In this document: positions 5,795 through 51,823 of the stretch, piece by piece
How the letters are laid out: each line of letters starts with the position of its first letter
How positions within the stretch are numbered: position 1 is the stretch's first letter
From: Lachnospiraceae bacterium
GTDB taxonomy: Bacteria > Bacillota > Clostridia > Lachnospirales > Lachnospiraceae
Assembly: GCA_028693705.1 (NCBI GenBank)
Contig: JAQUUX010000004.1
Span: 779-64,778 of the forward strand
Reading direction: 5' to 3'
DNA length: 64,000 nt
Notes under the pieces: model-generated
Told to the model about the DNA's origin: nothing
The model's database searches: none
The model's input: only the letters and a program-made list of their open reading frames with translations
Program-made: the position numbers and the translations under genes

Positions 5795-5796
<2 letters not shown>

Positions 5797-6424
5797 ACTG
5801 CAGTTTAGTAACTCAAAAAAATAATGTTTATAATGAGACGGCAATGGTGTGGGTGTGTATCCTTCCATTGCCGTTTACACGTATAAGAGCCGCTACATCA
5901 TTCCACGAAGATACTTGCCCTTTAACGCTAACGGCCCCAATCGCCATCCTGGCTCTAAGGGGCCTTTCAAGCCATTTATGGCTTTGGCATCCATGCCCGG
6001 AATAGCTGGGTTACGACTGGAATGATTAGCGGCTCTAATACGTGCGCTCAGGCAATAGAAGAATACACACCCGCACCACTGCCTGTTCATTACATTCGCT
6101 ATTCTTTTCAAGTTGCCAATCTACAGTTAGTCCAGTCTGTAGCTGAGGCCAGGCTATTGCAAATTTTCAGTTGCCGTAACTGGGGTCTTTGCGCCCCAGG
6201 GCACCGCAAACGGTAGCTTGAAGGAAATAAACATTGCCGTAAAACGAGGTTCAGCCGTGTATCGTATGCGAACAAGCACTGTAAACACGTCTGTACTTAG
6301 TTCGCGTCTTGTGCGAACTTATGTACAGCTACGTGTTTACCGTAGTGAGAACGGGCTTGTGAGCATATGATACACGGCTGAACCGTCACTTTACATCAAT
6401 CTTTATTCCTTTAAACTGCAGTTT
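5795..6424 (+). repeat. Copy A of a non-coding, palindrome-rich repeat element of about 630 bp, unclassified. It could be a structured RNA gene or a non-autonomous mobile element.
   Basis: Bounded by the perfect palindrome AAACTGCAGTTT at 5795-5806 and 6413-6424. Full-length homolog at 51177-51787 and a partial inverted homolog at 9302-9570. Giant imperfect hairpins at 5846-6077 and about 6209-6424. No credible ORF. Confidence 0.9.
6248..6384 (+). repeat. 137-nt imperfect hairpin, the near-invariant core of the repeat element (copy A)
   Basis: GGTTCAGCCGTGTATCGTATGC (6248-6269) pairs with GCATATGATACACGGCTGAACC (6363-6384). Inner stem GTAAACACGT / ACGTGTTTAC, with the apex around TCTTG near 6308. 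The same asymmetric bulges occur in all three copies. Confidence 0.85.
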
Positions 6425-49068: not shown

Positions 49069-50345
49069 TCAAGGCTTATGCTGATCAGGAAAAAGAATCA
49101 TTACAGAAAAGCAGTTATAAAGAAAATCAGGTTTTGATTACAACTTATCAGGGAAAAAGACTAATTACCCGCCTGGTTGGAAATTCCATGGAGGATTTAA
49201 TGGTTTTTCCGACAAATGGCTCAATGCTTGGCACGATTCACATTGGAAGGATTCAAAAAGTTTCAAAAACCATAGATTCTTTCTTTGTTGAGATTGCTGA
49301 TAAAAGGGTGTGCTTTTTGCCCGGTAGAAATATTATTGCACCAGTGCTGTTAAATAGAGAATATGATGGTAGATTATTGGAGGGGGATATTATTCTCATC
49401 CAGATAGAGCGGGATGCGGTTAAAACCAAGGATGCCGTCTGCACTACCAAACTTACTTTTAACGGGAAATATGTGATTCTCACAACAGGTAGCAACAAGC
49501 CCGGATTTTCCAAGAAATACACAGCAGACCAGCGCGGTTATTTTGTTGCCTGGCACAAAGATATTGCGGATACTTTACCAACGCTTTGTGTCCCTTTTGC
49601 ACCGATTTACAGAACAGAGTGTGCTGAGCTTTTGACTGCAAAAAAATCTGAACCAGAGATAGATCCATTAGAACAGGAACTTACATTTTTTGTTAATACA
49701 CTACAGACTATTGTGACAAAAGAAATTCACAAAAGTTTATATAGCTGCATTTATGCACCCGATCCTGATTATTACTTGTTTTTACGGGAAAGTTTATCCG
49801 GCGGTTATGAAGAAATTGTAATTGATGATGAAAACGTTTATTCTTTTTTACATGAAAAAGCACAAACAGGTCTGCTTGCTGATGATAAAATTCGTTTTTA
49901 TCAGGATGAAAGAATCGGTATGTCAGCTTTGTATGGAATACAATCTAAGATGGATGAGGTATTAAGTAAATCTGTCTGGCTGAAATCCGGCGGAAATCTG
50001 GTCATTGAACCAACCGAGGCATTAACGGTTATTGATGTAAATACCGGACGCTTTAGTGCTAAGCATCTGGGTACGGATCAGACCTATTGGAAGATCAATT
50101 TAGAAGCTGCAAAAGAGGCTTTAAGACAGATCAGATTGCGGAATATTTCCGGCATGATTTTAATTGATTTTATTAACATGAAAAAAGCAGATGAGGGAAG
50201 ACTATTAAAGACAGTTCGCGAGTTGTGTGAGAAAGAAAAGGTTTCTACAGAGGTCTACGACATCACAAAACTTGGAATTATGGAGCTTACCCGTAAGAAA
50301 ATATACAAAACATTAAAGGAGAGTCTGACTGGTGAAACTAACTGA
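49062..50345 (+). CDS. rng: Rne/Rng (RNase E/G) family ribonuclease
   Basis: Contains LTVIDVNTGRF, the catalytic-core signature, and GMILIDFI. N-terminal S1-like region. Confidence 0.8.
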   Translation: MLIKAYADQEKESLQKSSYKENQVLITTYQGKRLITRLVGNSMEDLMVFPTNGSMLGTIHIGRIQKVSKTIDSFFVEIADKRVCFLPGRNIIAPVLLNREYDGRLLEGDIILIQIERDAVKTKDAVCTTKLTFNGKYVILTTGSNKPGFSKKYTADQRGYFVAWHKDIADTLPTLCVPFAPIYRTECAELLTAKKSEPEIDPLEQELTFFVNTLQTIVTKEIHKSLYSCIYAPDPDYYLFLRESLSGGYEEIVIDDENVYSFLHEKAQTGLLADDKIRFYQDERIGMSALYGIQSKMDEVLSKSVWLKSGGNLVIEPTEALTVIDVNTGRFSAKHLGTDQTYWKINLEAAKEALRQIRLRNISGMILIDFINMKKADEGRLLKTVRELCEKEKVSTEVYDITKLGIMELTRKKIYKTLKESLTGETN

Positions 50346-50889
50346 TATTTATAAAGTGCATGACGGTACCTATCTTCATGGATACGAACTTTCTTATCAG
50401 ATAGAACCGGATCGAATGAAAACCTATGAAATTGTAAGTCGAAACGCTTCTCTTCGAACACCGGAGGATTTGGGTAGCCAGGTGGCAGGCGTTTCCATGG
50501 TGGTATTCCAGAATGACAGGCTACTATTATTACAGGAATTTCGCATGGGCATTAACCGAACCATTTATAATCTATGCGCCGGTATGTGTGAACCTGGTGA
50601 AAGCATGGAAGATTGCATGAAACGGGAATTGAAGGAAGAAACAGGTCTTGACCTGACAGAGATAAAAGTGCTGTTACCGCCGTCTTATGCTGCAGTTGCC
50701 ATTTCTGATATGCAGACACAGATTGCAATTGTAGAAGCTGCCGGTACACCAACGAAGCAAAAACAGCTTCATGAAGACATCATTCCGAAATTTTATAATC
50801 GGGAAGAAGTGGCTGAACTGCTACGCACACAAAGCTTTAGTTCAAGGGCACAGATCATGGCGTATTTTTATGTACAGCATATGCTGTAA
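50332..50889 (+). CDS. NUDIX hydrolase
   Basis: Nudix box GMCEPGESMEDCMKRELKEETG. GTG start overlapping the rng end. Confidence 0.8.
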   Translation: MKLTDIYKVHDGTYLHGYELSYQIEPDRMKTYEIVSRNASLRTPEDLGSQVAGVSMVVFQNDRLLLLQEFRMGINRTIYNLCAGMCEPGESMEDCMKRELKEETGLDLTEIKVLLPPSYAAVAISDMQTQIAIVEAAGTPTKQKQLHEDIIPKFYNREEVAELLRTQSFSSRAQIMAYFYVQHML

Positions 50890-50902
50890 AAAGGAGCTGA
50901 AT

Positions 50903-51172
50903 ATGGAAAAAAACAAGGCTTATTATATATGTACAGTACTTGACTGGTGCCTCTGTCTTATGGACGTGTTCATACTAGGTGCATTGGTTTCTGTGATTCT
51001 GCCTTTTCTAAATCAGATTATGACACAGTGGATTGCACTTTCCATATTGCGGAATTTTCTAAACATGATTTGCGTTATTATCATAGCAGCAAGTCTGATT
51101 TTACTTTTTAATCAAATTTCTATTTTAATTTCAAAGAAGTATTGGACTGGTATCTATGGTGGGACTAAGTGA
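50903..51172 (+). CDS. Small hypothetical membrane protein (89 aa)
   Basis: AAGGAG RBS before the ATG at 50903. Two or three hydrophobic helices. The ORF-track start at 50771 overlaps the NUDIX gene and is unlikely. Confidence 0.55.
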   Translation: MEKNKAYYICTVLDWCLCLMDVFILGALVSVILPFLNQIMTQWIALSILRNFLNMICVIIIAASLILLFNQISILISKKYWTGIYGGTK

Positions 51173-51176
51173 ATTA

Positions 51177-51787
51177 AAACTGCAGTTTAGAAACTTGCAA
51201 ATAATAATTATAAAGAGACGGCAATGGTGCGGGTGTGTATCCTTCCATTGCCGTTTACACGTATAAGACCTTCTACATCATTCCATAAAGGTATTCGGTT
51301 GCTTCCGCTAACGGAATCCAATCGCCATCCTGGCTCGGGATTCCTTTCCGGGCATCCATGCCCGGAATAGCTGTTTTGCAGCTGTAATGATTAGAAGGTC
51401 TAATACGTGTGCTCAGGCGATGGAAGGATACACACCCGTACCACTGCCTGTTCGTTACATTTGTTATTCTTTTAAAGTTGCCAATCTGCAGTTGCCTCGG
51501 TCTGTAGCCAAGGCCAGACTATTGCAACTATTCATTTGCCGTAACTGGGGTCTATGCTTCATCGGCACCACAAACTGCAGCTTAAAGAAAATGAATATTG
51601 CGTAAAACGAGGTTCAGCCGTGTATCGTATGCGAACAAGCACTGTAAACACGTCTGTACTTAGTTCGCGTCTTGTGCGAACTTATGTACAGCTACGTGTT
51701 TACCGTAGTGAGAACGGGCTTGAGAGCATATGATACACGGCTGAACCGTCACTTTACATCAATCTTTATTTCTTTAAACTGCTGAAC
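51177..51787 (+). repeat. Copy B of the palindrome-rich repeat element (full length)
   Basis: Starts with AAACTGCAGTTT (51177-51188) and ends with a degenerate AAACTGCTGAAC (51776-51787). Collinear with copy A. The 3' 177 nt differ from A at 2 positions. The 5' part is much more diverged, with indels. Confidence 0.9.
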
Positions 51788-51794
51788 AAAAAGC

Positions 51795-51823
51795 TTGACA
51801 CCCCGATAAGTGGATGATATTAT
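51795..51823 (+). promoter_or_regulatory. Candidate sigma-A promoter of the rplU-prp-rpmA operon: TTGACA, 17-nt spacer, TATTAT
   Basis: -35 TTGACA at 51795-51800 and -10 TATTAT at 51818-51823. It begins 8 nt after the end of repeat copy B. Confidence 0.6.

Follow-up and report, generated by a model that had tools for sequence, protein, structure and literature searches.

TwoAYGGAY RNA was catalogued in 2010 by Weinberg et al. (PMC2864571), who described its closing stem, P1, as often very long and cited covariation as evidence, and two further covarying pairs were added to the family in Rfam 15 using R-scape. The motif also matches a CsrA-binding motif model; binding was proposed as a hypothesis in a study that noted a tandem G.A adjoining one stem as well (PMC4333381). 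Common in gut Clostridia and Pseudomonas, TwoAYGGAY has remained an orphan without a demonstrated function. Two elements that almost certainly belong to this family, designated copies A and B, were found 45 kb apart in a 64,000-nucleotide stretch of a Lachnospiraceae bacterium genome (contig JAQUUX010000004.1, positions 779 to 64,778), referred to below as the window. Each lies in the 5' module of a repeated non-coding cassette, and the base pairing of its P1 stem is very probably under selection.

The assignment rested on several observations. An Rfam scan of the window returned only two matches, both to RF01731 (TwoAYGGAY RNA) on the minus strand, with model positions 1-168 covered and scores (Table 1) above the gathering score of 43 bits. 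A covariance model built in the course of the analysis, R1, scored copy A at 109.8 bits on the minus strand compared with 17 on the plus strand, a gap that arises from the loops and linkers. The two AYGGAY loops that characterize the family were represented by CAUGGAUG in hairpin 1 and by CCAGGAUGG, in which the Y is missing, in hairpin 2 of both copies, and the Y-less second loop also occurred in other members (for example L131, L201 and L142 among the retrieved homologous loci, which are numbered with the prefix L). The tandem G.A trait was present as GA-GCCA...UGGC-GA, invariant in both copies and in the family alignment, and the GA/GA flanks of hairpin 2 may form sheared pairs. The taxonomic setting fits the range of the family (Clostridia, human gut, gamma-proteobacteria): the best named relatives of the IlvC protein encoded next to copy A were from Lachnospiraceae, Kineothrix and Eubacterium metagenome-assembled genomes, and the window has 39% G+C and a Firmicute-type rplU-prp-rpmA-obg operon.

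The long stem that drew attention in the sequence-only reading is P1 of TwoAYGGAY and hence no new structure. Its fold and compensatory evolution were already on record, because the RF01731 matches are full length and the stem was covered by the 2010 description and the Rfam 15 pairs, so that the helix alone is a rediscovery of a stem described since 2010. The account of its letters was nonetheless correct. In copy A, AGAGCCGCTA pairs with TAGCGGCTCT, and in copy B, AGACCTTCTA pairs with TAGAAGGTCT; three substitutions distinguish the copies on each strand, GCCG to CCTT and CGGC to AAGG, and all are compensated. The substitutions fell inside one 4-nt box and involved three adjacent base pairs. 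The chance of compensating all three pairs was about 1e-4, a rough estimate that takes a divergence of about 15% and odds of 1/3 for a complementary base. The continuation of the helix beyond 10 bp, also claimed at the outset, was recovered by an inverted-repeat search, which found in both copies flanking arms of 18-19 nt that were 94-95% complementary (5878-5895/6027-6044 in copy A) and outer arms of 53-58 nt that were 78-81% complementary (5815-5872/6051-6108 in copy A). The 5' module, which makes up the left half of the cassette, is an imperfect hairpin of about 250 nt, spanning 51217-51455 in copy B, with the motif at its tip and 88-89 matched positions in the P1 arms. Its irregularities are fixed and comprise an internal loop (5873-5877/6045-6050), one U.U mismatch and one bulged G.

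Homologues were collected with loop-anchored patterns from at least 118 genome stretches and at least 120 metagenome stretches, and fell into two classes, a short-stem, high-copy class (Pseudomonas, Xanthomonadales and others) and a long-arm class (Lachnospiraceae, Clostridiales and gut samples). The long-arm members had 50-100 matched arm positions, although their outer sequences were unrelated to one another, and every long-arm homologue used was also matched by Rfam's own model. A covariance model made from 15 of them was used to align 39 full-length matches, 38 of them distinct. Paired cells made up 91.7% of the modelled helices, compared with 67.6% in shuffles, and the covariation score was 0.539, compared with 0.145 +/- 0.011 in shuffles (0 of 500 reached it), in an alignment that was fitted to the model's own structure and in which several rows are close relatives. 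Sliding the partners by 1-3 columns lowered the score to 0.07-0.12. Both-sided changes occurred in 25 of the 30 modelled pairs and in all 11 modelled pairs of P1 (helix 1), the helix that holds the 10 bp first noticed, and a separate MAFFT/RNAalifold run on 16 sequences agreed with this. The central claim of the sequence-only reading, that base pairing rather than sequence is kept in this stem, was upheld.

What did not survive was the view of the difference between copies A and B as a series of independent compensatory events in place. The 10-bp helix corresponds to columns 12-20 paired with 166-175 of the family alignment, and the differences lie in columns 15, 17 and 18. The variability of these columns is among the highest in the family (UA, GC, AU and CG all occur), and they sit within a box flanked by conserved UUAGA/UCUUA. 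The copies differ in a compensated manner there because the box may take any Watson-Crick sequence. The difference is a clustered block, and beside it the outer arms carry six single differences between the copies, none of which is compensated; only block changes were. Five of the six single differences were transitions, which created a wobble pair three times on the plus strand and twice on the minus strand. A single recombination tract across both strands of the box was also considered and rejected: the inner stem is conserved (100% and 88% identity) while the box and the tip differ, giving a mosaic. The recurrent non-Watson-Crick features of the family, namely GA/GA around hairpin 2, U.U and A.A mismatches and one bulge, argue that the fold is a specific design and not a plain palindrome.

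The 100-114 nt enclosed by the stem had been described as drifting freely. Instead, the two hairpins that are best conserved across the family lie in this region, and the stem that varies within it is compensated. GGCATCCATGCC occurs at 5986-5997 in copy A and at 51351-51362 in copy B, and its minus strand reads GGCAUGGAUGCC (hairpin 1), while GCCATCCTGGC, at 5943-5953 and 51324-51334, reads GCCAGGAUGGC on the minus strand (hairpin 2). Across the family the hairpins take the forms G[G/A]CA-UGGA-UG[C/U]C and GCCA-(N)GGA-UGGC, about 30 nt apart; the base before GGA may be U, C, G or absent, and the loops are otherwise invariant. The stem around hairpin 2 reads GGCCCC/GGGGCC in copy A and GGAATCC/GGATTCC in copy B. 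The small palindromes that had been noted as different in the two copies also have a place in this scheme: TTCCGGGCATCCATGCCCGGAA is not peculiar to copy B, since copy A has a shortened version of the same hairpin, and AAGCCATTTATGGCTT in copy A is an extra hairpin inserted beside hairpin 1.

Compared with published TwoAYGGAY elements, the copies in the window share the two GGA-loop hairpins, the GA/GA flanks, the inner stem, the long covarying P1, the multi-copy occurrence and a gut Clostridia-type host. They differ in that 1) the second loop is AGGAU instead of AYGGAU, as in about one third of the collected homologues, 2) copy A carries a 17-nt extra hairpin, 3) P1 runs far past the Rfam model to give a hairpin of about 250 nt, and 4) the motif sits in a repeated cassette of about 625 bp with a partner hairpin that lacks the tip. 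The P1 extension, the extra hairpin and the cassette setting do not appear in those descriptions of TwoAYGGAY that are accessible. A bioRxiv preprint dated 2026-09-24 ('Minerva', 10.64898/2026.09.22.753630) names TwoAYGGAY in its abstract and 52 times in all, and the word counts available for it include hairpin (33), repeat (39), "TwoAYGGAY RNA" (8), "TwoAYGGAY element" (4), ssDNA, or single-stranded DNA (5), cryo-EM, or cryo-electron microscopy (4), "transpos" words (2) and insertion (1), with zero for CsrA, recombinase, "mobile genetic", "inverted repeat" and RNA-seq (RNA sequencing). To judge from these counts, the preprint may already cover the extended hairpin or a larger element, and apparently treats TwoAYGGAY neither as a CsrA partner nor as a transposon. 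The residual interest of the locus lies in its context, that is, the cassette, the divergent pairs described below, the insertion polymorphism and the lack of a wobble preference, which make an orphan motif approachable by experiment.

The explanation that we tentatively prefer is that the element is an RNA scaffold that presents protein-binding loops. A long, rigid and irregular helix would carry at its end two invariant tetraloop hairpins separated by about 30 nt, the loops would serve as A(N)GGA sites in hairpin loops for CsrA/Rsm dimers, and the minus-strand RNA would titrate or recruit CsrA. This role is proposed because the loops fit the A(N)GGA hairpin-loop site of CsrA/Rsm dimers. There are two such invariant loops per element, with the tolerance at N expected of a CsrA-type site. 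The CsrA consensus obtained by SELEX (systematic evolution of ligands by exponential enrichment) is RUACARGGAUGU, and the RsmE site of hcnA is CACGGAUG. Among the matches listed, the homologues came from Pseudomonas, Xanthomonadales, Lachnospiraceae, Planctomycetes and a spirochaete, and these are groups known to carry csrA. We infer from such features that the element works as RNA rather than DNA, which strand acts, and that CsrA is the partner, but the parts are not equally secure: action as RNA is slightly favoured, and CsrA as the partner of the loops is a doubtful, if possible, identification.

The regulatory RNAs CsrB, CsrC and RsmX/Y/Z are alike in having GGA motifs in short hairpin loops near the high-affinity consensus, and the spacing of the two sites of each element would allow a single dimer to bridge them; the link to TwoAYGGAY was proposed earlier (PMC4333381). 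Unlike these RNAs, the element has two sites only, a very long helix and a dispersed multi-copy distribution, with no promoter or terminator detected and no sequence homology. No RNA antagonist of CsrA has, to our knowledge, been described in Firmicutes so far, and the element would be the first if its loops do bind CsrA.

Several observations weigh against the RNA scaffold. Helical arms of 60-100 bp would be RNase III substrates, and arms of this length suit a dispersed DNA repeat more than a small RNA gene, as do the occurrence of the element in multiple copies within larger repeat units and its 13-nt terminal inverted repeat. In addition, 1) no csrA gene was found in a search of the 64-kb window or the retrieved loci, 2) CsrA binding was put forward in print as a hypothesis in 2014-15, and no validation of it was found in the literature, 3) the 2026 preprint, which treats TwoAYGGAY at length, has no mention of CsrA in its available word counts, 4) G.U pairs made up only 2% of the helix cells and were no commoner than A.C, 5) one-sided changes were almost absent from the family alignment, which, like point 4, is unusual for an RNA that acts from one strand only, 6) a consensus scan of the minus strand of both cassettes revealed neither a sigma-70-like promoter nor an intrinsic terminator, and 7) there is nothing upstream of copy B on the minus strand that could give read-through. 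By eye, -10-like boxes were present upstream of some homologues, but these regions are AT-rich.

The counts behind points 4 and 5 bear on the question of strand. It had been suggested that imperfect positions would reveal the acting strand by giving G-U rather than C-A. The positions could be scored, and the modelled helix cells comprised 977 Watson-Crick, 22 G.U, 19 A.C and 71 other combinations, but this gave no clear answer as to the strand or as to RNA or DNA. In the longer arms of 16 distinct members, the summed counts on the Rfam strand were 57 G.U and 42 A.C, a weak lean only. Unpaired columns on the Rfam strand were 55% purine, a slight enrichment that counts, with the G.U lean and the R1 scores, in favour of this strand. 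When the 631-nt unit was folded and compared with shuffled sequences, z was -17.9 and -16.8, so that both strands had extremely stable predicted folds.

An alternative that we regard as unlikely, although better placed than the others, is that the cassette is a non-autonomous mobile repeat resembling REPINs or miniature inverted-repeat transposable elements (MITEs). Its hairpins would then be needed as single-stranded DNA in the course of replication or transfer, or as cruciforms, and be recognized by a transposase or recombinase encoded elsewhere; the covariation would reflect a need at the DNA level and the conserved loops would be protein recognition sites. The near equality of G.U and A.C and the near absence of one-sided changes are as expected if both strands, or DNA, must pair. 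The presence of two copies in 64 kb points the same way, as does the comparison with relatives that keep the ilvN-ilvC / lysR / leuC-leuD order. In these (L241, L242, L243-L248), the ilvC-lysR spacer is 72-107 nt and has an ordinary intrinsic terminator, whereas in the window it is 627 nt. This lineage has therefore gained the cassette by insertion or replacement, although the relatives have only about 90% IlvC identity and the junctions are not alignable base by base.

The organization of the cassette can also be read in this light. Copies A and B were 79% identical in the leader, 98% in the left and 87% in the right outer arm, 70% on each side of the 10-bp helix, 100% and 88% in the inner stem, 60% with indels in the tip, 80% in the middle module and 99% in the 3' module. 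The 3' module differed at 2 of 174 nt (6238-6411 compared with 51601-51774), while the rest was mostly 60-87% identical. Since the 3' module is 99% identical and the 5' and middle modules are less so, the modules have different histories, for which recent conversion, independent insertion and mosaic assembly are candidates. The 3' module also occupies the place where other members carry a second, oppositely oriented TwoAYGGAY copy.

Cassette A ends in a perfect 13-nt terminal inverted repeat, AAACTGCAGTTTA on the left and TAAACTGCAGTTT on the right, and the palindrome AACTGCAGTT, with one mismatch allowed, was enriched at borders: it occurred eight times in the window compared with 2.4 expected, and five of the eight were at cassette or module borders. 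The palindrome, which contains a PstI site, was located at the border positions 5796, 6414, 51178, 51484 and 51573, that is, at both ends of cassette A and, in cassette B, at the left end and on either side of the linker that joins the 5' and 3' modules. AACTGCAGTT may delimit each hairpin module as a unit of its own. The 13-nt inverted repeat is indistinguishable from a 9-bp direct duplication because AAACTGCAGTTT is itself palindromic, and AAACTGCAG at both ends is either a duplication or part of the inverted repeat. No unambiguous target-site duplication and no precise empty site was recovered, and this stands against mobility.

Arrangements in other genomes gave further support to a mobile repeat. 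Full-length copies were often found as divergent pairs, with their 5' ends facing and 120-290 nt apart, in at least seven loci (L007, L197, L192, L213, L233, L232 and L181), and the same arrangement was present in Pseudomonas (L011). None of the close full-length pairs was convergent, and one pair consisting of cores only (L169) was. A gut-metagenome unit of about 645 bp (L197, 619-1263) had the layout of the window cassette and related termini, CTGTTTAG and CTAAACAG. Both of its halves are complete TwoAYGGAY copies, and AATT possibly flanks the unit on both sides. In one metagenomic organism (contigs Ga0268257, Ga0268256 and Ga0209371), a non-coding repeat of about 1.3 kb that bears the motif was present in at least 15 copies, and the short-stem motif is a high-copy repeat in Pseudomonas.

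The search for a partner that would move the cassette was negative. No transposase, recombinase or other recurrent protein family was found within 2.5 kb of about 260 copies, where only spurious open reading frames (ORFs) of the repeats and ubiquitous families (ABC transporters, GGDEF/EAL) recurred. No transposase was evident among the annotated window ORFs flanking and inside the cassettes, and none of the six ORFs in the cassettes matched a Pfam family. Nor did the whole cassette have a BLAST match in the plasmid or phage collections, and pattern scans of IMG/VR returned nothing or a chance match in high-GC coding DNA (L001). Against the 239 retrieved loci, only the motif core showed similarity, with no relative of the middle or 3' modules. 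Moreover, single-strand transposases of the HUH type (IS200/IS605) need both end hairpins on one strand, a requirement that does not fit oppositely oriented pairs.

Known repeats give a similarly divided comparison. REPINs, REP (repetitive extragenic palindromic) sequences and hairpin MITEs such as Correia, ERIC, BOX and RUP are also short, intergenic, non-coding and multi-copy, with long hairpins, frequent positions at terminators and terminal inverted repeats. Unlike them, the element conserves more than terminal repeats, namely a tip of several stems whose loops are invariant and whose evolution is compensatory, and no RAYT or transposase partner and no clear target-site duplication was found. 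Integron attC sites and the hairpins of single-stranded DNA recombination or origins are alike in conserved structure, variable sequence, little wobble and fixed irregularities; unlike these, the window element is far longer, has no integrase or relaxase nearby and forms no arrays. A more specific form of the mobile explanation, which seems to us improbable, would make the TwoAYGGAY hairpins the working modules of non-autonomous cassettes bounded by AAACTGCAGTTT-type sequences, usually in opposed pairs, that fold on both strands as single-stranded DNA or cruciforms in order to move and, incidentally, disperse high-affinity CsrA-type loops among the intergenic regions of Clostridia and gamma-proteobacteria. 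The rare wobble, the equal frequencies of G.U and A.C, and the difference in divergence from module to module (99% compared with about 85%) would follow from such a life cycle at the DNA level. If the structure does act in DNA, it would represent a new kind of hairpin-based repeat.

A distinctly less probable explanation is that the cassette is a cis-acting element, co-transcribed with its neighbours as a terminator, an insulator or a hairpin that stabilizes mRNA or is processed by RNase III, much as Correia, ERIC, BOX and RUP repeats behave, with GGA loops that are incidental or modulatory. The positions of the two copies are suggestive in this respect. The ilvC and lysR-type genes on either side of copy A are convergent, and the copy lies exactly where the relatives have a bidirectional intrinsic terminator, and read-through from lysR would yield the Rfam-strand RNA of this copy. 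Copy B lies between the NUDIX-gene region upstream and the promoter of the rplU-prp-rpmA-obg operon (TTGACA, 17 nt, TATTAT; 51795-51823), and no other terminator was found at either site. The stability of the predicted folds is also compatible with such a role. However, the invariant loops, the conserved non-canonical pairs and the multi-stem covariation seen throughout the family are left unexplained, a terminator needs just a short GC hairpin and a U tract, of which none was scored in copy A, and copies A and B differ in orientation relative to the neighbouring genes.

Finally, homogenization of a palindrome by template switching (intra-palindrome gene conversion), which would keep the arms complementary with no selection on the fold and could account for the clustered change of 3 of 4 nt, the rarity of wobble and of one-sided changes, and the pairing of outer arms that are unrelated between members, is very improbable, since the left and right outer arms differ in conservation (98% and 87%) and carry the six uncompensated changes, mismatches, bulges and the asymmetric internal loop persist at fixed positions in both copies and the family where conversion would erase them, and G.U and A.C cells do occur, so that the refutation by gene conversion that had been envisaged for the paired stem fails.

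Table 1. Positions of the cassette, its modules and the TwoAYGGAY structures in the window
Feature	Copy	Position	Strand	Remarks
Cassette	A	5795..6420		Non-coding repeat unit of about 625 bp between ilvC (+) and lysR-type gene (-)
Cassette	B	51177..51783		Upstream of rplU-prp-rpmA-obg operon
TwoAYGGAY motif	A	5872..6050	minus	70.4 bits, all 168 model positions
TwoAYGGAY motif	B	51252..51415	minus	98.6 bits
Full extended hairpin	A	5837..6090		P1 prolonged outward past the Rfam model; minimum free energy folds on both strands, inverted repeats
10-bp helix, left strand	A	5886..5895		Part of P1; variable box GCCG 5889-5892
10-bp helix, right strand	A	6027..6036
10-bp helix, left strand	B	51266..51275		Box CCTT
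10-bp helix, right strand	B	51392..51401		Box AAGG
Hairpin 1	A	5986..5997	minus	GGCAUGGAUGCC, loop UGGA; invariant across family
Hairpin 1	B	51346..51367	minus	Full 9-bp stem TTCCGGGCATCCATGCCCGGAA
Hairpin 2	A	5943..5953	minus	GCCAGGAUGGC, GA/GA flanks (candidate tandem G.A pairs); invariant in family
Hairpin 2	B	51324..51334	minus	GCCAGGAUGGC
Extra small hairpin	A only	5969..5984		AAGCCATTTATGGCTT, next to hairpin 1; 17-nt insertion relative to Rfam model
Middle module	A	6091..6237		Small hairpins; 80% identical between copies
3' module	A	6238..6411		Hairpin of about 175 nt, no GGA loops; 99% identical between copies
3' module	B	51601..51774
Left terminus	A	5795..5807		AAACTGCAGTTTA; perfect 13-nt inverted repeat with 6412-6424
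Right terminus	A	6412..6424		TAAACTGCAGTTT

The tip of the 3' module (6285-6330) reads GUACUUAG-UUCGCG-ucuugu-GCGAA-CUUAUGUAC and resembles a P1 from which the two-hairpin tip has been deleted. In the 5' module, P1 reads GUAUUAG-AGCCGC...GCGGC-UCUUAUAC, and the pattern shared by eye is GUAYUUAG-box...box'-CUUAURUAC. When a degenerate TwoAYGGAY was sought in the 3' module with the covariance model, neither strand scored significantly (about 6 bits each), and because the model does not confirm it, the resemblance is a lead only.

One ATG frame is open in both cassettes, at 6022-6216 (+, 64 codons) and 51387-51605 (+, 72 codons), and spans the right arm and the middle module. Neither a Pfam match nor a proper ribosome-binding site was found for it, and a hand count gave about 7 synonymous and about 15 non-synonymous differences, a roughly neutral proportion, so that it is unlikely to be a gene. 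Pfam also gave no match for an ORF of 133 codons (50771-51172, +) that lies immediately before cassette B, and this ORF overlaps the NUDIX gene (50332-50889) at that gene's end. Should the ORF be spurious, as it may be, cassette B would be preceded by about 290 nt of non-coding DNA. On its other side, the near-consensus rplU promoter, which has a TG before the -10 box, begins 12 nt past the end of the cassette, which is inserted just outside the control region of the ribosomal-protein operon.

The divergent pairs were located at 5244-5714 in L007, 683-1190 in L197, 732-1186 in L192, 645-1118 in L233, 4011-4454 in L232, 11117-11682 in L181 and 1492-2000 in L011, with pair spacers of 120-440 nt overall. 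The spacers are AT-rich and hold -10-like boxes that would suit divergent transcription. The 1.3-kb repeat was represented in L130, L146, L157, L159, L162, L164, L166, L170, L183, L186, L193, L195, L205, L229, L235 and L239; its copies are 80-90% identical and contain, besides internal tandem repeats of about 50 and about 150 nt, a segment that resembles TwoAYGGAY in inverted orientation. The short-stem motif was found on at least eight contigs of Pseudomonas sp. NCHU5216 and in four tandem copies in L075, and in the high-GC genomes concerned (L002-L119, many of them Pseudomonas and Xanthomonadales) the motif translates into spurious long ORFs.

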